The notes under the pieces were generated by a model. That model had not been told where the DNA came from. It worked only from the letters and a program-made list of their open reading frames with translations, and made no database searches. A program made the translations under genes and the position numbers. A DNA stretch of 64,000 bases from Candidatus Saccharimonadales bacterium (GTDB lineage Bacteria; Patescibacteriota; Saccharimonadia; Saccharimonadales; UBA10212): the NCBI GenBank assembly GCA_040900055.1, contig JBBDZU010000007.1:169705-233704 (forward strand). Reading direction: 5' to 3'. This document shows, one piece after another, positions 1,407 through 64,000 of this stretch (its first letter is position 1; each line of letters opens with the position of its first letter).

Positions 1407-3704
1407 ATGGCCAAGAACCTAGTAATTGTAGAAAGTCCTGCCAAAGCTAAAACTATCGGCCGGTTTCTAGGCAGTAACTACCAGATTAAAAGCAGCCTGG
1501 GTCACATTCGCGATCTGCCCAAACAAGACCTTGGAGTGGATATTAAAAATAAATTTATGCCAACCTACCAAGTTAGTCCCGGTAAAGAAAAAACTGCCAA
1601 AGAGCTTAAAGCAGCCGCTAAAGACAAGGCTGTATGGCTAGCCACAGATGAGGACCGGGAAGGCGAAGCCATAGCTTGGCATGTCTGTAACGTCATTGGC
1701 GCAGATCCAGCTAAGACTCATCGCATTGTATTTCACGAAATTACCGAGCCAGCCGTTAAAGCGGCTATAGCTAAACCTCGGACTATCGACATGAAGCTAG
1801 TTGACTCACAGCAAGCTCGCCGGATTTTAGACCGCCTAGTTGGCTATGAGCTAAGCCCGGTGCTTTGGAAAAAAGTCCGTACTGGGCTATCGGCTGGCCG
1901 GGTCCAAAGCGTAGCTGTTAGGTTGATTGTAGATCGTGAACGTGAAATTAAAGACTTTAAGCCGGTAGCTAGCTTTAAAGTGACGGCAGAATTTGATGCT
2001 GGCGGCCAACCTCTGCCGGCTGAGCTAGACACTAAGTTAGAAAATATTGAAGAGTCCAGACGGTTTTTGAATCAAATGCCCACGTCCCGATTTAAAGTTG
2101 CGAATATCGCCGAAAAACCAGCCAGCCGTAGCCCTAGTGCACCCTTTACTACCAGCACTCTCCAGCAGGAAGCTGCCCGCCGCCTTGGTTTTAGCGTTAA
2201 GCAAACTATGGTAACGGCTCAGCGGCTTTATGAAAACGGTCTAATAACCTACATGCGAACAGACAGCACCACGCTATCACCCCAAGCAATTGAGGCGGCT
2301 AAATCCTACATAATAATTACTTACGGTGCCAAGTACTCCTACCCCCGTCAATTTCAAACTAAAGCCAAATTAGCCCAAGAGGCCCACGAGGCAATTCGAC
2401 CAGCGAATTTATCTAAACCAACCGCTGGAGTCGACAGCGGGCAAAAAAAACTATATGAATTAATATGGCGACGGGCTATAGCTAGTCAAATGACGGCTGC
2501 CCAAATTGCTAAAACAGAAGTTTCCATAGAGATTAGCAACCAAGACCTACGGTTTATAGCCTCAGGCGAAGTTCTAGTTTTTGATGGCTTTATAAAGGTC
2601 TATGGCGGGGGAAGAGATGACCGTATCTTGCCTAAAGTCGCAGGAGGCCAAGATTTAAACTATCAAAAAATTAGCGCCACCGAAACTTATTCGCGCCCGC
2701 CAGCCCGCTATAGCGAAGCCACGCTTGTTAAAAAATTAGAGCAGCTGGGCATTGGTCGCCCCAGTACCTACTCGCCGATTATATCGACTATCCAAGACAG
2801 GGAGTACGTAGAAAAAACAGATATCGAAGGGCAAACCCGGCAGGTAAAAGAGCTTACACTGGTTGGCGACCAGCTTAAAGAACAGCAGCTGAGTGTCAAT
2901 TTTGGAGCCGACCGATCTAAGCTAATGCCCACACCACTTGGCGAGTTAGTAACTGACTTCTTGATCACCCACTTTAAGCCAATAGTCGATTATCAATTTA
3001 CAGCTTTAGCCGAAGAACAATTTGACCAAATAGCCGAAGGTAAAATTGCCTGGCAATCAGTCTTAGAAGACTTTTATAAATTCTTTCACCCTTTGATAGA
3101 AAAATCCAAGGACGTTTCACGCTTTGAAGCGGTTAAGGCTCGTGAGTTAGGTACACACCCAAAAACCGGTAAAAAAATTATCGTCCGCTACGGCCGCTAC
3201 GGCCCCGTCCTACAAATGGGGGAGGCCACCAAAGATAAAAAAGCCCCCAAGCCCCAGTTTGCCCCACTGCCTGATGGCTCAACTATTGAAGATATTGATC
3301 TTAAGCAGGCCTTGCCAATGTTTAACTTACCAAGACCTGTGGGTCAGACGGACGAAGGTACGCCGATTTTAGCTGATATTGGTCGCTTTGGTCCGTATTT
3401 AAAAGTCGGCAAGAAATCGCTAAGTATAGAAGGCAGCGACCCGCTGTCAATCTCCGAGCCGGAGGCTAAAAAACTAATAGCCGAACATGACAAGCGCCAA
3501 AAAGAAAGGGTGATTGCTGACTGGGGCACTCTGAAGATCCTGCGCGGGCCTTATGGGCCCTTTATTACGGATGGCAAGAAAAACGCTCCAGTACCCAAGT
3601 CCGAAGACCCAGAGAAGGTTAGCGAGCCTCAAGCTAAAGACATACTTCGAAATGCTCGTCCAAAACGGCATTTCAGGCGACCCAAGCGACTCCCTAAAAC
3701 GTAA
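1407..3704 (+). CDS. topA: DNA topoisomerase I
   Basis: 765 aa. TOPRIM LVIVESPAKAKTI and TDEDREGEAI; active-site context ITYMRTDS; basic C-terminal tail. Confidence 0.97.
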   Translation: MAKNLVIVESPAKAKTIGRFLGSNYQIKSSLGHIRDLPKQDLGVDIKNKFMPTYQVSPGKEKTAKELKAAAKDKAVWLATDEDREGEAIAWHVCNVIGADPAKTHRIVFHEITEPAVKAAIAKPRTIDMKLVDSQQARRILDRLVGYELSPVLWKKVRTGLSAGRVQSVAVRLIVDREREIKDFKPVASFKVTAEFDAGGQPLPAELDTKLENIEESRRFLNQMPTSRFKVANIAEKPASRSPSAPFTTSTLQQEAARRLGFSVKQTMVTAQRLYENGLITYMRTDSTTLSPQAIEAAKSYIIITYGAKYSYPRQFQTKAKLAQEAHEAIRPANLSKPTAGVDSGQKKLYELIWRRAIASQMTAAQIAKTEVSIEISNQDLRFIASGEVLVFDGFIKVYGGGRDDRILPKVAGGQDLNYQKISATETYSRPPARYSEATLVKKLEQLGIGRPSTYSPIISTIQDREYVEKTDIEGQTRQVKELTLVGDQLKEQQLSVNFGADRSKLMPTPLGELVTDFLITHFKPIVDYQFTALAEEQFDQIAEGKIAWQSVLEDFYKFFHPLIEKSKDVSRFEAVKARELGTHPKTGKKIIVRYGRYGPVLQMGEATKDKKAPKPQFAPLPDGSTIEDIDLKQALPMFNLPRPVGQTDEGTPILADIGRFGPYLKVGKKSLSIEGSDPLSISEPEAKKLIAEHDKRQKERVIADWGTLKILRGPYGPFITDGKKNAPVPKSEDPEKVSEPQAKDILRNARPKRHFRRPKRLPKT

Positions 3705-3778
3705 GCTTAGCCCCTTACACAACCTTTTATAGCAAAAACGTCTAATTCGTGATAGAATAGACATATCAAGAAAAGTGT

Positions 3779-4978: not shown

Positions 4979-7558
4979 ATGGCGTTATTTACTAAAACCA
5001 CAAAAAAATCCCAAGAAGCGCAGGCTGACTGCTTGCTTATGCTTGAGGTGCCCAGGACCAACGATAAAAAAGAACTCGCCGCCGAGCAAATGCTAGCCGC
5101 TTTACACGGTATCCTCCGACCCAAAAGGGAGCTTCGGCTGGCAGGCCACTTACAAGAACACATTAGTCTGGAGGTAGCAGCTATTGGACAGCGCATTCGC
5201 TTCTATATTTGGACACCCAAACGCCTGCAGGCTTTTGTAGAAGGTCAGATTTATGCCCAGTATCCAACAGTCCAAATTTATGAGCAAGAAGAGGATTACA
5301 CTGAAAGAAAGCTCCACCAAACCGTTATTCACACCACTGAGCTTAATCTCATAGACGATGAGACCCTGCCAATTAAAACTTTTCCCAGTTTTGAGGTGGA
5401 CCCTTTGGCGGCTATTACAGCCACTTTGGCTAAGTTAGACAAAGAAGATGAGGAAATGTGGATCCAGATCATGGCTCGACCAATTGCCGACGACTGGCAC
5501 CGCAGGGGAGCCAAAGTGGTTAGGCGCATCCGCAGCGGCCGAAGTTTATTTGGTGGGGCTGCCACTACCTTTAGCTATGCTGCCGAAGCCTTAGCGGCCT
5601 TAGCGCGTCCGCCGACTGCTACCGAAGCTAGCGGGACAGATTTGTCCGAACGAGACAAAAGCCGCATTTCTGCTATAGAGGAAAAAAGCAATAAACTTGG
5701 CTACCAAGTTAAGATTCGTCTGCTATATGGCGGCCATGACCAGACAACAGCTCGGCTGCGCATGCAGGCCTTAGTTGGAGCCTTTAAGCAATTTAATACC
5801 ACAAACTTAAATGGTTTCACTGCAAAAACACCTAGTTTTAACAGAGATAATCAGCTGCAATTCCAGGCTCGCTTCTTTATTGATCAGGGGTTTATATTAA
5901 ACATAGAAGAGCTGGCAAGTTTGTTCCATTTACCCCACACCACAGTCGAGACACCTAACATCGTTTGGGCTACTACAAAGACCGCTGAGCCGCCTCCGAA
6001 CATACCTGTTACTACCGCAGGGCAGGAGAGCGATATCAGCTTATTTGGGGTTACCAATTTTCGTGGCGATAACACCATATTTGGTATCCGCCGCGATGAT
6101 CGTGATCGACATATTTACATACTAGGCCAAACTGGCACTGGTAAATCCGGGGCATTAGAGCTCTTAACGTTATCGGACATTTATTACGATCAAGGTTTTG
6201 CCGTTATTGATCCGCACGGCGATTATGCCCATCATGTTTTAAGCTTTATTCCCGAAAGACGCCTTGATGATGTTGTCTATTTTAATCCAGCTGACACATC
6301 TTATCCCATTGGTTTTAACCCCCTAGAAGTGACCGATCCGACTCTAAAAGGGCATATTAGCTCAGAATTAGTCGGCGTACTAAAAAGACTATTCGCGGAA
6401 AGTTGGGGCCCGAGGTTGGAGTATATTTTGCGATACACTTTGCTGGCCTTGCTTGATTACCCCAATTCGACCATGCTTGATATAACCAGGATGCTAACTG
6501 ATAAAAAGTTCCGCTCTAATGTCATAGGTTATATTGAAGACCCAGTAGTAAAAAGCTTCTGGGTTACAGAATTTGCTAGCTGGAATGATCGCTTTGCTTC
6601 CGAGGCAGTAGCCCCAGTGTTAAACAAAGTTGGTGCTTTCACTGCCAACCCTATGATCCGAAACATCATCGGTCAGCCCAAAAGTACTTTTAATCTTCGT
6701 CAAATAATGGATCAGGGTAAAATCCTTATTGTTAATTTGAGCCGTGGTTTGATGGGCGAAGATAATGCCGGAATCTTAGGCGCTATGATGGTCACTAAGA
6801 TCCAACTAGCAGCTATGGGACGAGCCGACATGCCAGAAGAGCAGCGCAAGAAATTTTATCTTTATGTTGACGAGTTCCAGAACTTTGCAACTGATTCGTT
6901 TGCCACCATACTGTCGGAGGCTCGTAAATATGCCCTAAACTTAACCGTAGCCAACCAATATATCTCCCAGATGAGTGAAGCAGTTCGGGATGCTGTCTTT
7001 GGCAACGTGGGAACTATAGTCTGCTTTCGGATTAGCCCAGACGATTCGCCGTTTTTACAAAAATATTTCGAGCCTCAATTTGAGGCTGGCGACTTAATAC
7101 AACAACATTCCCGCTTTTTTGTCGTGACAATGATGATAAATGACGAGAAGGCTCCGGCTTTTTCGGCTAAAACCCTCAATATACCGCCAGCTCCCGCTGA
7201 TCTAACTTCCAGGATTATTGAACTGTCGCGCCAGCGGTACACCCAGGAGCGCCCGGTAGTTGAAGATATGATCCGCGTGTCAGCCGGCTTAGAGAGCCAT
7301 GGTGTTCCGCCAATTAATCCTCAGACTCACAAAATAGAGCCTAAACCTACTAGTATCGTTGCTACACCTCCCGAGCATATCGGTAAGGTTGCCACTACAC
7401 CGATTGTCGGCAGCGAATCAACTACCAGCCGTTCTACCAAAAGACGACGTGGACGGAGGGGGCGAGGGGGGCCGGCTAAGAGTCCTTCAACCAGTAACGC
7501 AGGCCCGCCTAAGGCATCGCCGGCCGAGGCCCAGGAACACACTGTACGTTTACGTTAG
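4979..7558 (+). CDS. TraD/VirD4/TraG-like P-loop ATPase (coupling-protein family) with a large uncharacterised N-terminal domain
   Basis: 859 aa. Walker A ILGQTGTGKSG, Walker B-like FYLYVDEFQNFAT, LSEARKYALNLTVANQ. Arg/Gly-rich tail KRRRGRRGRGG. Confidence 0.75.
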   Translation: MALFTKTTKKSQEAQADCLLMLEVPRTNDKKELAAEQMLAALHGILRPKRELRLAGHLQEHISLEVAAIGQRIRFYIWTPKRLQAFVEGQIYAQYPTVQIYEQEEDYTERKLHQTVIHTTELNLIDDETLPIKTFPSFEVDPLAAITATLAKLDKEDEEMWIQIMARPIADDWHRRGAKVVRRIRSGRSLFGGAATTFSYAAEALAALARPPTATEASGTDLSERDKSRISAIEEKSNKLGYQVKIRLLYGGHDQTTARLRMQALVGAFKQFNTTNLNGFTAKTPSFNRDNQLQFQARFFIDQGFILNIEELASLFHLPHTTVETPNIVWATTKTAEPPPNIPVTTAGQESDISLFGVTNFRGDNTIFGIRRDDRDRHIYILGQTGTGKSGALELLTLSDIYYDQGFAVIDPHGDYAHHVLSFIPERRLDDVVYFNPADTSYPIGFNPLEVTDPTLKGHISSELVGVLKRLFAESWGPRLEYILRYTLLALLDYPNSTMLDITRMLTDKKFRSNVIGYIEDPVVKSFWVTEFASWNDRFASEAVAPVLNKVGAFTANPMIRNIIGQPKSTFNLRQIMDQGKILIVNLSRGLMGEDNAGILGAMMVTKIQLAAMGRADMPEEQRKKFYLYVDEFQNFATDSFATILSEARKYALNLTVANQYISQMSEAVRDAVFGNVGTIVCFRISPDDSPFLQKYFEPQFEAGDLIQQHSRFFVVTMMINDEKAPAFSAKTLNIPPAPADLTSRIIELSRQRYTQERPVVEDMIRVSAGLESHGVPPINPQTHKIEPKPTSIVATPPEHIGKVATTPIVGSESTTSRSTKRRRGRRGRGGPAKSPSTSNAGPPKASPAEAQEHTVRLR

Positions 7559-7743
7559 TTTAAAAGAGATCATTATTACGTACATTTTACGAACACCATA
7601 GTATGGACATAGTTTATATAGATATTAAAGAAAAGAAGGTAATAGGTTAAGCGGAAAGAATGGAAGAAATTGAAGTATAGAAAACTGAAAAAATACAGAT
7701 AAATCAAGCGAAGGGAGATAGCTTATTTAGCTCATGATGACAC

Positions 7744-7767
7744 GTCGCACAATGTATATTTTGCGAC
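7744..7767. other. dif-like inverted repeat (candidate Xer-type recombination site, or simply a hairpin)
   Basis: gtcgcacaa TGTATA ttttgcgac: 9-bp arms with one mismatch around a 6-bp spacer identical to the E. coli dif core. Confidence 0.3.
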
Positions 7768-8273
7768 TTACATAATCTAAGAGACAAATATGTATATAAG
7801 CCCTTCTAACAGGGGACTTGTATTATTTAGCGCCTCGTAATTATCGTATGTCCGCTTCTGCACTCTAGTTGCTTCTAAGCTCTCAAGCTTAATGGTCTGC
7901 TGTAGTCTTTACCTAAACTTATCCACAGCCATTAGTTATATATTTGATTTTTCTATATTTCATATCTTTATATGTTATTCGATTTTTTCTCGACATTTAC
8001 TAATATTTGACATTCTAAATAATCATATTATGCTTATGCTTTCCCCTGCTTGAAGACTAACACAAATTTTGAACAAAATACGAACTAAGAGAGTAGAGAG
8101 TCATTAGGCATCTCTTCCAGATACTAAGCGATAACCGCTTCTCATAACATAATTACAGCTGACCTAAAACCCCGCCTTTGAAATATGGCACTCCTTCCCT
8201 TCCCCTGTCGTCGTCCTCGTTAAAGTTATAGCTATCTCTACCATAGTCAGAAAACTTGCACCTTAATTAACGG

Positions 8274-9137
8274 TCATCTATAGAAGATCTTGCCGCTAAC
8301 TCGTACATCCAAGTATAGTTCCGGATTTATATTAGCTGCTGTAAAATGCTCACGAGCAGCCAAGAACTGACCGATTTGCGAGCGGGCATCGCCAGCTAAA
8401 TTAAACTTAATAAAATAAGGCTTATCTGTCGTTCTTAAGTTAAGTTCGTGTGGTCTGGGCGGTAGAGTTAGAGATTTTATGGGGGCCCCTGCCTTTTTAG
8501 ATTGGTTAACTACAGCCTTAATAAAATCAACAGCTGATTTGCTCATGGCCTTTTGATCTTTTTTAAGCTCAAACCCGCTTTGATCATCAATTACTGTCAG
8601 CCCACTTATCTTAGGTAGCTCCTGCTTTAGCGCGACTGTTCGACCCATGGCATCAACAATGTAAGTCGAGGTATTGCTGGTTACAAAAAAGGTCGGTGCA
8701 GCAATATCAAGCTTAACGGTTGGCCGCTGGCTTATGGGCGACAAATGCAAGGAAGCGGTAGTAATTTCCGGGAACTTCTTTTTTAAAGAGTCTGCTACTT
8801 TAGCTTCGTCTAAGGTCACCTTGTTTCGATTCTTTAGTTTTTTTAAGTAGGCTTCGGCGGCTTTTTGGTAGGTAGCTTGGCTGTTGTAGGACAGATCGCT
8901 GACTTGCATATGAGGCCGAGGCTTAAGACTTAATATATATACCAAGCCGTAAATAACCAGACCAATTAACATTAAGTCTAATAATCTTGATAACACCGGT
9001 CGCTTTTTTTTGAGTTTGGGTTTTGGCTTAAAGGGGCTGGGGGCAGGTTTAATATCGCCCTTATAATACTTGGTGGCGGGTACCCGGCCGGTTGGCTGTC
9101 GGACTCTAAGGCGAGAATGAGGCCGGGCCACTACCAC
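8274..9137 (-). CDS. FtsQ/DivIB-like cell division protein
   Basis: 287 aa. Basic N-terminus, one TM helix (LMLIGLVIYGLVYILSL), POTRA-like region. It sits directly after murG at the end of the dcw cluster. Confidence 0.6.
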   Translation of the reverse strand: MVVARPHSRLRVRQPTGRVPATKYYKGDIKPAPSPFKPKPKLKKKRPVLSRLLDLMLIGLVIYGLVYILSLKPRPHMQVSDLSYNSQATYQKAAEAYLKKLKNRNKVTLDEAKVADSLKKKFPEITTASLHLSPISQRPTVKLDIAAPTFFVTSNTSTYIVDAMGRTVALKQELPKISGLTVIDDQSGFELKKDQKAMSKSAVDFIKAVVNQSKKAGAPIKSLTLPPRPHELNLRTTDKPYFIKFNLAGDARSQIGQFLAAREHFTAANINPELYLDVRVSGKIFYR

Positions 9138-43531: not shown

Positions 43532-44014
43532 GTGGTGTTAAGGCCTATTACGCTTGGTCTTGGTATGGTGGTGGCCCTTACTTTATTTTTTGGGGCCTTT
43601 GCACCCAACGACAGCTTATTTTATAGCCTAATATCGATAAATATTTGGTCCGCCGTTTTTAAGACGGCTCTCCTTATTGCCCTAGTTTTAATAGCAACTC
43701 GAAGGAGGTTTAAATACGCTGTTACTTCGATACTGCTAGCTAGTCTAGGCTCTCTCTTAATAATGTTTGGCTTAGCAGGTTTATTTGTACCGCAGATAAC
43801 TTATGGATTATTTACTTACGCTAAGTTTCTAGACTTCTTATTAATGACGGAGGCTGGCGTTATTATGAGTTTAGCTGTCTTAACTTTTGAGTCAGCAAAA
43901 CAAAGGCTGCCGATGCCCGCTAAGCTGCAGCCAATTCAAGCCTATATAAGCCTGCGTAATCAACTGCCGGCCAAGGGTTCGTTAAAATCCATGTCAATAA
44001 GAAAGCCAGCCTAG
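43532..44014 (+). CDS. Hypothetical polytopic membrane protein
   Basis: GTG start preceded by aaaGGAGat. 160 aa with four hydrophobic segments. Confidence 0.65.
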   Translation: MVLRPITLGLGMVVALTLFFGAFAPNDSLFYSLISINIWSAVFKTALLIALVLIATRRRFKYAVTSILLASLGSLLIMFGLAGLFVPQITYGLFTYAKFLDFLLMTEAGVIMSLAVLTFESAKQRLPMPAKLQPIQAYISLRNQLPAKGSLKSMSIRKPA

Positions 44015-44074
44015 AGAATAGCCGGCTTTCGATATTTACTTTTGTTTGTTTAAGAGTGTTTGTGTGAGGTGGTT

Positions 44075-44296
44075 TTAGGAGTCGCCTTTTTTGTTGTTGC
44101 CCATCATCATAAGCATGGTGTAGAGCAGATAAAGTGCTGCCACACCTACCACTGCGTATATTACGCGGGCAACGGTAGAGCCGGCGTCAAAGAGCTCGTC
44201 AACTAGGTTGTATTCAAAAAACCCGACGAGACCCCAATTTAGACCACCGAGTACGACTAGAACGTTAGACAATTTGTCCATTGCGTTCATGTTCAT
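44075..44296 (-). CDS. DUF378-like small membrane protein
   Basis: 73 aa with VVLGGLNWGLVGFF. Confidence 0.7.
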   Translation of the reverse strand: MNMNAMDKLSNVLVVLGGLNWGLVGFFEYNLVDELFDAGSTVARVIYAVVGVAALYLLYTMLMMMGNNKKGDS

Positions 44297-44477
44297 TGCT
44301 ATTCCCCTTACGTTTATAATACGTCAATAATAGCGCTAATGCTTGACCTTGTCCAGTCGAAATTTTTTGTCTATTTTATTATTTTAAAATTTAGAGGAAC
44401 AATACTTTCTAAGACGTTAATGTAAGGTTTTTAAACATCTTTTCCACTAAACTATCCACAAAATCGACTACGCTTAG

Positions 44478-44506
44478 TTGACAAGGATTCGGCGGTTGAA
44501 TATCAT
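44478..44506 (+). promoter_or_regulatory. Orphan sigma-70-like promoter
   Basis: TTGACA (44478-44483), 17-nt spacer, TATCAT (44501-44506). No plus-strand gene lies downstream. Confidence 0.45.
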
Positions 44507-44512
44507 TGTAGT

Positions 44513-44595
44513 AACCATCGTGAGGTGGCCAGATCAAGTACCTCCTCGGAGGCAACTAATCGACAAAAAAGAGCCCCTTAAAAGGCTCTTTTTTG
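44513..44595 (+). ncRNA. Candidate small RNA (~85 nt) of unknown class
   Basis: It lies between the orphan promoter and the intrinsic terminator at 44569-44594. It contains GAGGTGG and CCTCCTCGGAGG segments. Confidence 0.35.
44565..44595. terminator. Bidirectional intrinsic terminator
   Basis: aagagcc-ccttaaaa-ggctctt with an A-run before it and a T-run after it. It also ends the minus-strand operon 46652..44610. Confidence 0.8.
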
Positions 44596-44609
44596 CATAT
44601 TATGGTTTT

Positions 44610-45107
44610 TTAATTTGTATCGACGGGGCTGACCTCTATTTTAAAATAGCCAGGCTTCAGGCTACGAGAAAAAATTTCTAAGATTGGCTTAGGCGGATCC
44701 AAAAGGACTAGCTCTTTTTTAAGCTCCAGGCTTCTTTGATTAAATGATACGAGCGTGCTCAATACAGCTGCATCAACCGACTCTGCTTGGCTTAGATCTA
44801 CAGTGATTTTGCTAACAATAGGATCATCAAGACAGCTAGAAATTACTCCAAGTTCGTCTTGTCTATATATATCTAGCTGGCCGCTTAGCGGAATGATTTG
44901 CTCAACTTTGTGTGACTGCTCGGCTGTCGGTGCAGGTTGTAACGATTCTAATTCAGCAATCCTTCTGTCGCGAAGCTCAGTATGCTCGGCTATTCTATCC
45001 TGCAAGTTAGCGATAACTTGATTGTGGCTGCCTATCTGATATCTAAGCAACGTTCCCTTAAGCTTAGTGTCTTCGGCGTCGCTGCCAGGGCCTAATTTTT
45101 CACTCAC
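44610..45107 (-). CDS. Coiled-coil plus STAS-domain protein (anti-sigma-antagonist fold)
   Basis: 165 aa. The N-terminal ~60 aa are heptad-rich. C-terminal ITVDLSQAESVDAAVLSTLVSF has Ala at the usual phospho-Ser position. Confidence 0.65.
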   Translation of the reverse strand: MSEKLGPGSDAEDTKLKGTLLRYQIGSHNQVIANLQDRIAEHTELRDRRIAELESLQPAPTAEQSHKVEQIIPLSGQLDIYRQDELGVISSCLDDPIVSKITVDLSQAESVDAAVLSTLVSFNQRSLELKKELVLLDPPKPILEIFSRSLKPGYFKIEVSPVDTN

Positions 45108-62068: not shown

Positions 62069-62707
62069 ATGCTGTTAAGATACATGTCCAAAAAAAGTCC
62101 GCAAATTCCACCAGAGCCGGGCGTGAGGGCCGACAGGCATAGCGCCTGGCGTGTTTCACTGTCAACCATTGGCATACTGGTTGCTGCGCCCCTTATCGCC
62201 CTGGCGTTGACGGCGTTTGTCGTACAGTCCTACCAGGTAGAGGGTTCTAGCATGGAAAAGACTCTAAACGATAAAGACCGCCTAATCGTTAACAAGCTGC
62301 CTAGGACTTGGGCCAATATTACAGGCCACACTTACATTCCGAATCGCGGTGACATTATCGTCTTTAACCAAACTGGCCTACCCGGCTATAGCGGCCCAAA
62401 ACAGCTTATCAAACGAGTTGTTGGGCTACCTGGCGAGCGAGTCATGGTCCAAAACGGCTCAGTTACGATTTATAACAATGATAGTCCTGGTGGCTTTGAC
62501 CCCGACAAACTTGGTGCATACCAAATAATCAGCCACTCGACCACCTCCAATGTCGATGTCCAATTGTCGAAAGATCAAGTTTTTGTTTTAGGCGACAACC
62601 GGCGTAATTCCGAAGATTCGCGCTATTTCGGCCCCCTAAAGGCCGAAAGTATTGTTGGCGATCTCATGCTACGCATTTTGCCCATTGATAAAGCCCAAAA
62701 GTTCTAG
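62069..62707 (+). CDS. lepB: Signal peptidase I
   Basis: GSSMEKTL (Ser), KRVVGLPGE (Lys) and GDNRRNSEDSR. I chose the ATG at 62069 (62084 is also possible) rather than the ORF start at 61985, which overlaps the LCP gene. Confidence 0.88.
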   Translation: MLLRYMSKKSPQIPPEPGVRADRHSAWRVSLSTIGILVAAPLIALALTAFVVQSYQVEGSSMEKTLNDKDRLIVNKLPRTWANITGHTYIPNRGDIIVFNQTGLPGYSGPKQLIKRVVGLPGERVMVQNGSVTIYNNDSPGGFDPDKLGAYQIISHSTTSNVDVQLSKDQVFVLGDNRRNSEDSRYFGPLKAESIVGDLMLRILPIDKAQKF

Positions 62708-62734
62708 CTCCCTTCTTTTTTAAGAATATATTTT

Positions 62735-63245
62735 GCCACCTTGTGCCGACAAGGGTGGCGTAAAAACTCTCGGACATTCAAAAAGCTAGATGGTCGCTCA
62801 GCACTTGCCATAAGTGAATCTGCGGAACGACAAGCCTGCCTGCCGGCCGGCAGGCGGTCCTCATTCCTTCGGACAGTCCTCGATTCAAAAGACTGATGGC
62901 TCATTCTTCGCTACCTCTGTTTTTTCAAGTCCGAACCTATGGGTCCGGGCATAAGAAGCTATTCATGGGCATGTAGGCGAGCCTGAGCCAGAGCGTCAAA
63001 AGCATCAATAAATTAGTGCCGAGGACCAGCCTCTAGGCCGACCGAAGGGAGTTTTGCAGGCTTGTTTGTGCGCTTTGACAAGGGCTGGCATCAGCCGAGC
63101 CTACGCCCAGAGTTTTTGGGCCACTTTTGTCGGTACAAAAGTAGCAATAATTTGCTTCTTTTAAAAAAGAAGATGCAGTTTGCCACACTTTGCCGTTCAA
63201 AGTGTGAAGATTGGTTTGGTGATACCTTTACGGCTAAAGGTATCA
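62735..63245. repeat. Cluster of short related hairpins in an ORF-poor convergent gap
   Basis: Hairpins at 62735-62759, 62836-62857, 63121-63144, 63155-63172, 63184-63206 and 63220-63245. Four share a ...CTTT(T)G / CGG-containing loop / CAAA(A)G... design. Confidence 0.55.
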
Positions 63246-63260
63246 AAAATTTGTTCAGGC

Positions 63261-63286
63261 AAAAAATGAGGCTACTATGCTAGCCT
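63261..63286 (-). terminator. Intrinsic terminator of parB
   Basis: Stem aggcta(63269-74)/tagcct(63281-86) includes the parB stop codon. On the minus strand it is followed by CATTTTTT. Confidence 0.65.
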
Positions 63287-64000
63287 TGTAATTGTTCAGC
63301 AATCCGTTGTAAGTCTTGTTCCGATTTGAAGACAATTATTAGCTGTCCACCGTGAGCAGTATGTTTAATTTTGACCGGTGCATTGATTTTTGAGCCTAAA
63401 GCCCTGGTTAACTCATTCTCGCTGGCTGTTGTTTTCTTAGCAATCGCAGTATTGGCACCCTTTTTAACAGCTGTAACAAACTGTTCGGCCTGCCTGACAG
63501 TCCACCCGTTGTTTAAAACACAACTCAGTAATTCCTGTTGTTTCTTATCATTGCCTTTGAGTGCTAGTATAGCCCTGGCATGGCCTTCACTTATCTTGCC
63601 TTCGGCTAATGCTAGCCTGGCTGGTTCAGGTAACTGTAGTAGACGCGTCAAATTACTTAAGGTACTGGGCGCCTTGCTAAGTTTTTGGGCAATCTGGTCA
63701 AGCGCTAAATTAAATTGCTGTTGTAATTTATATACACTCAAAGCTTGCTCTAATGGCGACAGGTCCACTCTCTGGATATTCTCAATTAAGGATAATTCTA
63801 TCTGCTCTAGCTCCTCTAATGAGCGGACAATGGCTGGTATATGGCTAAGTTTAGCATCTTTGGCGGCCCGCCAGCGGCGTTCTCCGGCTACGATTTTGTA
63901 GCCATTTTGGTCGCTATGACGCACTACAATAATGGGCGACAATATGCCGTGGTTTTTAACGGAAGACACTAGCTCTCTATGGGCGGCTTCGTCAAAGTCA
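63280..64000 (-). CDS. parB: Chromosome partitioning protein ParB (N-terminus beyond the window)
   Basis: GILSPIIV...IVAGERRWRAAK. The frame stays open upstream of the ORF-track Met (..DFDEAAHRELVSSVKNHG). Confidence 0.9.
   Translation of the reverse strand, partial: DFDEAAHRELVSSVKNHGILSPIIVVRHSDQNGYKIVAGERRWRAAKDAKLSHIPAIVRSLEELEQIELSLIENIQRVDLSPLEQALSVYKLQQQFNLALDQIAQKLSKAPSTLSNLTRLLQLPEPARLALAEGKISEGHARAILALKGNDKKQQELLSCVLNNGWTVRQAEQFVTAVKKGANTAIAKKTTASENELTRALGSKINAPVKIKHTAHGGQLIIVFKSEQDLQRIAEQLQG

Follow-up and report, generated by a model that had tools for sequence, protein, structure and literature searches.

Convergent copies of a modular hairpin-plus-rod element in the lepB-parB gap of a Saccharimonadales bacterium, members of a candidate family of structured RNAs

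The described bacterial elements closest to the one treated here are of several kinds. 6S RNA (RF00013) is a rod-shaped RNA with a long closing stem, a central loop and an inner stem bearing bulges and an apical loop; its genes, of which a genome has one or two, lie in non-coding regions and are frequently transcribed together with a neighbour. Small RNAs derived from 3' untranslated regions (3'-UTRs) and the stem-loops that stabilise mRNA 3' ends form stable helices. At the DNA level, the ERIC/IRU, BIME, Correia and RUP repeats are imperfect intergenic palindromes of more than 100 nt that lie at gene ends in either orientation, and REP sequences, which are mobilised by RAYT, consist of a tetranucleotide and a palindrome. 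In the candidate phyla radiation (CPR), RNase P RNAs can be so diverged that they fall below Rfam thresholds (PMC8172020), and according to a 2022 preprint on the TM7x transcriptome, small RNAs have not yet been validated in that Saccharibacteria genome. Here we report on the gap between the convergent genes lepB (+ strand, stop at 62707) and parB (- strand, stop at 63280) in a window of 64,000 nt, the whole stretch of DNA analysed, from a Candidatus Saccharimonadales bacterium. The gap, put at about 570 nt in an original prediction made from this DNA and measured at 572 nt, is two convergent, tail-to-tail copies of one modular hairpin-plus-rod element (elements A and B) together with two solo copies of its 5' module. 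Literature searches found no earlier description of such an element family, whose members, judged from sequence evidence, probably act as transcribed, protein-binding RNA modules.

Joint alignments of the copies give a common plan, which runs through an AU-rich hairpin NNCUUU...AAAGNN (H0), a spacer of approximately AAAUAAUUUUU, a second hairpin (H1), a linker and a rod. H1 is a hairpin of 10-11 bp whose inner stem, ACYUUKG/CMAARGU, is conserved and whose outer pairs covary, with NCCG or NUCG as the usual loops; the linker is a single-stranded (G/C)CAAAAC, the most conserved unpaired stretch of the family; and the rod is an irregular hairpin of 145-165 nt with a GC-rich closing helix. Element A occupies 62713-62934 on the + strand, directly after lepB, and element B occupies 63172-62966 on the - strand, after the parB terminator (Table 1). 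An H0-type module upstream of H1 is also found in the window copy B (winB), L018A, L027_2, L027_3, L022_1 and L009B. The four related stem-loops that had been picked out in the original prediction are all present, the second slightly longer than described, with stems of 10 bp plus one bulge (62735-62759), 11 bp (63120-63145), 9 perfect pairs (63184-63206) and 11 perfect pairs (63220-63245), and they are the H1 module of one family in both orientations. A long-range inverted repeat of 33-60 nt, absent from that prediction, pairs 62712-62773 with 63106-63172 and is formed by the opposed 5' modules of the two elements. The apex of the type-A rod, in the window the GC palindrome of the original prediction, differs among orthologues, being GCUCC-UUCG-GAGC in L002, for example. 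The rod of element B is built from the helices UGGGC/GCCCA, GUAGGC/GCCUAC, CUGA/UCAG, GCCAG/CUGGC and UGUCAAAG/UUUUGACG, with a central motif GCCUGCAAAAC...GGUCCUCGGC, and the spacer between the 3' ends of A and B (62935-62965) holds GGGUCCGGGCAU, a string common to L009 and L002. Both solo modules, each an H1 followed by CAAAC, sit on the - strand between element B and the parB terminator; that at 63175-63206 is near-identical to the H1 and linker of L009B and is taken in by a covariance-model match at 63179-63247 (24.2 bits). At L002 7758-7830 there is a miniature convergent partner of element A, with an H1-like TTACTTTGG-GTGG-CCAAAGTAA, a linker CCAAAGCC and only a short CCGGGC...GCCCGG hairpin where the rod would be, and this suggests that the 5' module may outlast its rod.

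The density of hairpins noticed in the gap is a real enrichment, as the window holds 14 perfect hairpins with stems of at least 8 bp against 5-8 in shuffles, three of them within one 125-nt stretch of the gap, and the fold of the gap is more stable than that of shuffles on both strands (z = -6 for the + strand, z = -8 for the - strand). The GC palindrome (as a hairpin at 62834-62858), the cttctttt/aaaagaag pair and the parB terminator (63269-63286) were likewise recovered, and it holds that no hairpin other than the last qualifies as an intrinsic terminator. The recurrence reported for a TTGTGC string proved to be partial: an exact 8-mer, GACAAGGG, is shared and nothing longer, and its second copy lies inside the rod of element B.

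Fifteen distinct copies of the element were found in eight Saccharimonadales genomes. One homologue (locus L002) came from a search with lepB and three more (L009, L016, which is identical to L017, and L018) from scanning metagenomes with the 18-mer ATAAGTGAAYCTGCGGAA, common to element A and the L002 homologue; the remaining matches to the 18-mer were due to chance, including those to 18S rRNA 3' ends. Further copies came from nhmmer searches with a hidden Markov model (HMM) of a 200-nt core, which in the window gap also matched the other strand and which picked up diverged copies in loci centred on gyrA, and from a covariance model, which gave full-length matches of 24.8-202 bits for the 15 copies; the match to element B has 24.8 bits (E 4e-4 to 8e-5), and nhmmer matches it at E 2e-30. 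The L002 homologue corresponds to 62735-62955 of the window and lies 3.5 kb off, directly after rplU; the L009 element follows rnpA-yidC-jag, with dnaA and DnaA boxes 2.5 kb away, and the elements of L016 and L018 follow gyrA. L009 has an A/B tail-to-tail pair as in the window, but between different genes. There are three copies within 22 kb in L027 and two each in L018, L016, L009, L030 and the window. By pairwise identity the family divides into at least five subtypes, namely A (winA, L009A, L002A, L018A and L016A; 61-85% identity), B (L027_3 and L018_2; 78%), C (winB, L009B and L027_2; 60-68%), D (L027_1 and L030p; 59%) and E (L030m and L016_2; 65%). Orthologues are 59-85% identical and within-genome pairs 51-60%, and orthologues are the closer in every case; this is the pattern of an old gene family and not that of a recently spreading repeat.

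The five type-A orthologues each fold independently into H1 plus rod (z -3.6 to -6.9), and compensatory pairing, which the original prediction had proposed to look for in relatives, is strong. In a model-based alignment of 18 distinct rows, 90.2% of cells are paired against 63.0% in shuffles, 52 of the 55 pairs (196 cells) are changed on both sides, and controls slid along the alignment are 37-46% paired. A model-based alignment leans towards the structure of the model, and for this reason a count was also made on a plain MAFFT alignment of the five orthologues, where 90.4% of cells are paired against 80.7% in shuffles, both partners have changed in 19 pairs (25 cells) where shuffles give 8.0 +/- 1.9 pairs, and slid controls are 33-46% paired. 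None of 500 shuffles reached the observed value in either alignment. The H1 helix is 98.8% paired, with eight of its ten pairs changed on both sides; the changes fall on the outer pairs and the inner ACYUU/AARGU is conserved. The closing helix of the rod is UCGGAC/GUCCGA in the window, CCCGAAC/GUUCGGG in L009, UCAGAC/GUCUGA in L002 and CCGGCAC/GUGCUGG in L018, and the inner helix alternates between GAAUC/GAUUC and GAACC/GGUUC. L016A and L018A share 71% identity along some 190 nt, and the gyrA genes that end just upstream of them encode proteins that are 85% identical, with only 40% identity at conserved four-fold sites. Such sites are therefore close to saturation, and the element is shown to be under purifying selection. 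A small protein gene was considered and ruled out, as 1-nt indels lie between the conserved blocks and no reading frame is conserved among the orthologues, which share only 5-8 aa in translation, stemming from the invariant nucleotide block. Chance hairpins or functionless, decaying sequence, the last of the options in the original prediction, would suit a window without annotation and without a match in Rfam; this explanation is excluded because homologues exist in eight genomes, compensatory changes are found and selection is purifying, and it retains next to no probability.

The invariant block of type A, AUAAGUGAAYCUGCGGAAC (62810-62828), has 10-16 nt in common with the 3' end of small-subunit (SSU) rRNA, GUAGGUGAACCUGCGGAAGG (helix 45 loop and 3' strand). 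Because of this shared sequence, the 18-mer scan also pulled 18S/ITS contigs (L012 and L013). Within the element the block pairs elsewhere and therefore forms no hairpin like that of helix 45, and the likeness may be coincidence or mimicry.

All 4227 families of Rfam 15 were searched against the whole window at gathering threshold and against the gap and the L009 and L027 elements at E≤10, with matches from about 15 bits listed. No match was found in the 64-kb window at gathering threshold, and the subtypes searched (A, B and C) gave only chance-level matches at E≤10. The RNase P RNA models (RF00010/RF00011) had no match in the window at gathering threshold and none in 62600-63400 at E≤10, and the same was true of L009 and L027; the search suggested with the original prediction, which covered RNase P, 6S and all of Rfam, thus returned nothing beyond chance. 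A single structured RNA gene of about 460 nt with a 60-bp terminal stem, for instance an RNase P RNA of the diverged CPR type, had been the initial reading. It agrees with the minimum-energy fold of the whole gap, in which 62712-62773 pairs with 63106-63172, with a loose likeness of AAGUCCG...CUAUGGG to conserved region I (CR-I) and with the fact that CPR RNase P RNAs, which share the CPR host, a length of a few hundred nt, the lack of a gathering-threshold match and short CR-I-like strings, can escape Rfam thresholds (PMC8172020). This reading was dropped, since the halves are independent homologues on opposite strands, each of which matches one model over its full length; element A also occurs alone in L018 and L016, and the 'terminal stem' is the two facing 5' modules. 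The partial resemblance to RNase P that had been pointed out earlier is also unsupported, and the RNase P lead is refuted: no P4 is seen, the strings are not conserved in orthologues, several paralogues occur per genome, and the RNase P-like strings are the closing strand of A and the 3' arm of B. AAGUCCGA (62927-34), with its AAGUCC string, forms the 3' side of a helix whose other strand is UCGGAC (62770-75); this helix covaries, and at the position of the string orthologues have GUUCGGG, GUCUGA and GUGCUGG with compensating changes on the 5' side. A single large RNA is accordingly very improbable. The earlier suggestion of an unrecognised structured RNA comes closest of the options then listed, in that the sequence is conserved with compensatory changes, but it does not stand as one RNA gene.

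The nearest architectural counterpart of the element is 6S RNA. Independent folds of the five orthologues show a closing stem, a central bubble and an inner stem, and in the consensus an internal loop with about 11 columns on one side and 14 on the other lies between helices 2-5 and 6-8. Like 6S RNA, the element lies in a non-coding region and has a rod, here of 145-165 nt, in which a long closing stem leads through a central loop of about 11-14 nt per strand to a bulged inner stem capped by an apical loop. Unlike 6S RNA, it carries the additional 5' modules H0, H1 and CAAAAC linker, its inner-stem motif is strongly conserved, and it exists in at least five subtypes, with 2-3 copies within 10-22 kb. 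RF00013 and related models gave no match at E≤10 for subtypes A, B and C. With 3'-UTR-derived small RNAs and mRNA 3' stabilisers the element shares stable helices and, in most copies, a start at the stop codon of a gene in the same orientation; in contrast to these, its size and sequence conservation far exceed what a stabiliser needs, and some copies lie 5' of genes or in divergent positions.

We infer that the active molecule is RNA, and the strand on which it is encoded, from several lines of evidence. Eight copies have a gene that ends no more than about 120 nt upstream, and all eight share its orientation (seven begin 0-13 nt past the stop codon, and L009A about 120 nt past it), and this bias points to transcription. 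G-U pairs outnumber A-C mismatches by 42 to 18 on the modelled strand, a count taken from an alignment fitted to the model. H1 of element B contains a U-G pair on the - strand for which the + strand would have a C-A mismatch, and in L002 the apical hairpin has a UUCG loop and a canonical terminator lies downstream of the element on the same strand. Taken together, the orientation bias, the G-U excess, the U-G pair of B and the loop and terminator of L002 favour RNA of the modelled strand. H1 was also considered as an intrinsic terminator and rejected, since it has U's before it and GCAAAAC after it on its own strand and is likewise followed by A's on the complement, so that a U-tract follows the hairpin on neither strand.

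A number of observations weigh against transcribed, protein-binding modules. The reverse complement of each type-A core is slightly more stable, by 1.6-8.6 kcal/mol. Neither scans for promoters and terminators nor inspection by eye of the sequence upstream of H1 brought out a consistent signal. L027_1, L018_2, L022_1, L030m and L030p have no co-oriented gene ending just upstream, being located upstream of genes or in divergent spacers (L030m and L030p are head-to-head), and element B lies beyond parB's own terminator; these six would therefore need promoters of their own, none of which was identified. The resemblance to 6S RNA, as an analogy, is one of architecture only, given the missing RF00013 match and a copy number unlike that of 6S RNA. 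The sample is small, at 15 copies. Moreover, the distribution is patchy, as the related gyrA loci L023, L028, L032 and L035 and the parAB loci L036, L038 and L040 are without the element, and the insertion site varies by genome (after lepB, jag, rplU or gyrA), so that a semi-mobile element fits these two facts as well as a gene family does.

The main rival is a selfish or domesticated palindromic intergenic repeat of the ERIC, BIME or MITE type, which would spread at the DNA level by inserting near gene ends and would have at most side effects on the stability of mRNA 3' ends or on the insulation of convergent genes. The orthologous lepB-parB spacer is 39-152 nt long and element-free in six other genomes (L002, L003, L005, L036, L038 and L040) against 572 nt here, and the extra 480 nt or so of the window gap is therefore an insertion. 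Such a repeat would also account for the different genes that one subtype follows in different genomes, the patchy presence among related genomes, the existence of solo and tandem 5' modules and the form of the element, a long imperfect palindrome in both orientations and in head-to-head or tail-to-tail pairs. ERIC elements are likewise conserved across genera and transcribed, and the presence of ERIC/IRU-type repeats varies between genomes in the same way. Nevertheless, near-identical copies within a genome, as expected of MITE or ERIC sequences, were not seen; within-genome copies are the most divergent, the opposite of recent bursts, although presence and absence at orthologous sites do occur. 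No copy was found elsewhere in the 64-kb window by BLAST of the gap or by motif, HMM and unfiltered model searches, and the whole-genome search for dispersed hairpins envisaged earlier, run on this window, matched only the gap locus; a marginal match at 179-230 is unrelated to the family. The arms of the rod are not simple inverted repeats but contain asymmetric conserved loops, and they are accompanied by a separate hairpin-plus-linker module; compensatory changes keep the helices, and the sequence is kept beside saturated neutral sites. No terminal inverted repeat with target-site duplication was recognised at the ends of A and B, where empty sites are too diverged to align, and neither these features nor a transposase neighbour was recognised at any locus. 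The solo 20-26-nt hairpins beside CAAAC (GTTTG on the other strand) and their inverted, BIME-like pairing recall REP sequences; in contrast to REP, the element is not dispersed in 64 kb, is kept across distant genomes instead of being species-specific and is joined to a 150-nt rod, and no RAYT gene turned up at the sampled loci. The earlier proposal of REP-like palindromes therefore fails on copy number and on the pattern of orthologues and paralogues, and a domesticated repeat seems rather doubtful. Carriage by phage was ruled out: the viral contigs searched contained no match to the 18-mer or to the H1-plus-linker pattern, and at least 80 loci with an H1-core palindrome in them gave no match to the model.

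A further alternative is that the element produces no RNA and acts as single-stranded or cruciform DNA near the origin, for instance to bind or load a protein of replication, segregation or topology. The type-A copies all adjoin genes that are usually origin-proximal (parB; rnpA-yidC-jag; gyrB-gyrA; rplU 3 kb from parAB), the cumulative minimum of GC skew is at the right end of the window, and both strands form about equally stable structures. In line with what had been reported, canonical parS is also missing: the 16-bp palindrome TGTTNCACGTGNAACA was not found with up to two mismatches in the window, in the surroundings of the elements or in the sampled parAB loci (L002, L003, L005, L036, L038 and L040), and the ParB of Saccharimonadales may recognise a different site. 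The origin-proximal location is suggestive, but for the later copies it is partly an effect of sampling, as loci were fetched around gyrA. Against a DNA-level role, three other parAB and four gyrBA loci have neither a copy nor an H1-like palindrome, and H1 sequences differ within one genome yet keep their pairing, which is unlike a double-stranded operator; the match of orientation to the upstream gene points instead to transcription. An array of ParB-binding sites, as had been proposed, is not supported, in view of the same within-genome differences and covariation and of the absence of H1-like palindromes from the parAB loci L003, L005, L036, L038 and L040. DnaA boxes (TTATCCACA, up to one mismatch) are absent from the gap, those of L009 flank dnaA at 2.5 kb from the element, and an identity of the gap with oriC was ruled out for want of a DnaA-box cluster. 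A purely DNA-level function is thus unlikely. GC skew is negative across the whole window (1-64000), and its cumulative minimum at the right-hand edge probably puts the origin a little past 64000.

LepB is identical to protein P0001 of a Candidatus Saccharimonadales metagenome-assembled genome (MAG), named signal peptidase I (PF10502), and the window ParB is about 70% identical to syntenic ORFs, with ParB_N and HTH_ParB Pfam matches in L036, L038 and L040; the gene identities given earlier are thereby borne out. The order LCP-lepB, parB, parA is kept in relatives, with genes that have ParB and ParA Pfam matches. The next-best LepB is 63-65% identical to that of the window; there are thus no close relatives, and fine-scale comparison at the orthologous site is impossible. 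The gap had been ranked as the second-largest non-coding stretch of the window but is the third when ORFs of at least 100 aa are counted, as 7558-8274 and 44014-44610 are longer; neither of these matches the element model, and close to the end of the latter a perfect 12-bp hairpin between A and T tracts (44564-44595) looks like a bidirectional terminator. A scan for tRNA and tmRNA genes found none in the window. At other loci, L016 has a short tandem duplication of the 3' closing strand of the rod (CAGATGTTCGGA...CAGATGTTCGGA) just past element A (3700-3745), and in L022 a 16S rRNA gene begins right after gyrA (from 12650), where other genomes have the element. In many Saccharimonadales a conserved cluster of genes of about 112, 140 and 960 aa lies upstream of gyrB-gyrA (L022, L023, L027, L028, L029/L030 and L035), the largest with DUF8128 and a faint AAA_22 match; element copy L027_2 is directly after this cluster.

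Table 1. Features of the lepB-parB gap and its flanks (window coordinates; numbered hairpins are those of the original prediction).
Feature	Position	Strand	Basis and remarks
lepB (signal peptidase I)	62069..62707	+	ORF; upstream of and co-oriented with element A; context
Element A, H0: weak AU-rich hairpin UUCUU-UUUU-AAGAA	62713..62726	+	Fold; begins 6 nt past lepB stop
Element A, H1 (hairpin 1): GCCACCUUGU-GCCG-ACAAGGGUGGC	62735..62759	+	Fold, repeat analysis
Element A, linker: GUAAAAACUC	62760..62769	+	Alignments; model-based consensus 'caAAACtc'
Element A, rod: 165-nt irregular hairpin	62770..62934	+	Folds, RNAalifold, covariation, model match 155 bits
Element A, rod closing helix	UCGGAC 62770-75 with GUCCGA 62929-34	+	Followed by central internal loop
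Element A, rod inner helix	GAAUC 62816-20 with GAUUC 62882-86	+	Holds invariant block AUAAGUGAAUCUGCGGAAC (62810-28)
Element A, rod apical GC hairpin, variable	62834-62858	+	Fold
Spacer between A and B 3' ends, about 30 nt	62935..62965	.	Small hairpin CCGAACC-UAUG-GGUCCGG, overlaps closing strand of A
Element B, rod (subtype C)	62966..63109	-	Fold; RNAalifold with L009B, L027_2
Element B, linker: CCAAAAACUC	63110..63119	-	Alignments
Element B, H1 (hairpin 2): GCUACUUUUGU-ACCG-ACAAAAGUGGC	63120..63145	-	Fold, repeat analysis
Element B, H0 (cttctttt/aaaagaag)	63155..63172	-	Repeat analysis, alignments
Solo 5' module (hairpin 3): CACACUUUG-AACGG-CAAAGUGUG then GCAAACUGC	63175..63206	-	Fold
Solo 5' module (hairpin 4): UGAUACCUUUA-GCCG-UAAAGGUAUCA then CCAAACCAAU	63210..63245	-	Fold, HMM, model
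parB intrinsic terminator: hairpin plus CAUUUUUUG	63269..63286	-	Outside element family
parB, 3' part	63280..63969	-	ORF, cut by window end; context

If the elements do act as transcribed RNA modules, each member would mostly be transcribed from, or along with, the gene ending just upstream, to give a transcript or 3'-UTR module of about 190-230 nt. The stable 5' hairpin H1 and the single-stranded CAAAAC linker would then serve as an end-protecting and recognition module, and the double-stranded rod of 145-165 nt with its conserved internal loops as a specific protein-binding scaffold. The layout of the rod, in which a central bubble of about 12 nt per strand separates the closing stem from an inner stem bearing CUGCGGAAC...UCARACAGUCCUCGG, would be that of a 6S-type decoy. 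The partner, speculatively, could be RNA polymerase, as for a 6S-like RNA, or another double-stranded-RNA-binding protein; a specific 6S-like function is itself improbable. The boldest version, in which Saccharimonadales carry at least five paralogous subtypes of 6S-like or protein-sequestering RNAs around the replication origin, recognised through the 5' hairpin-CAAAAC module, is also a long way from being favoured. Were it true, no lineage-specific regulatory RNA system would have been described for CPR bacteria before it, and in these ultra-small epibionts it might tie transcription, or the availability of RNA polymerase, to the biology of the chromosome near the origin. The element family accounts for otherwise puzzling long 'gaps' in these MAGs, and the covariance model lets annotators mark them. 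A structured element of multiple subtypes, backed by covariation and kept under selection in genomes of some 1 Mb that have little non-coding DNA, is probably useful to the cell, and it offers a concrete candidate for work in genetically tractable Saccharibacteria.

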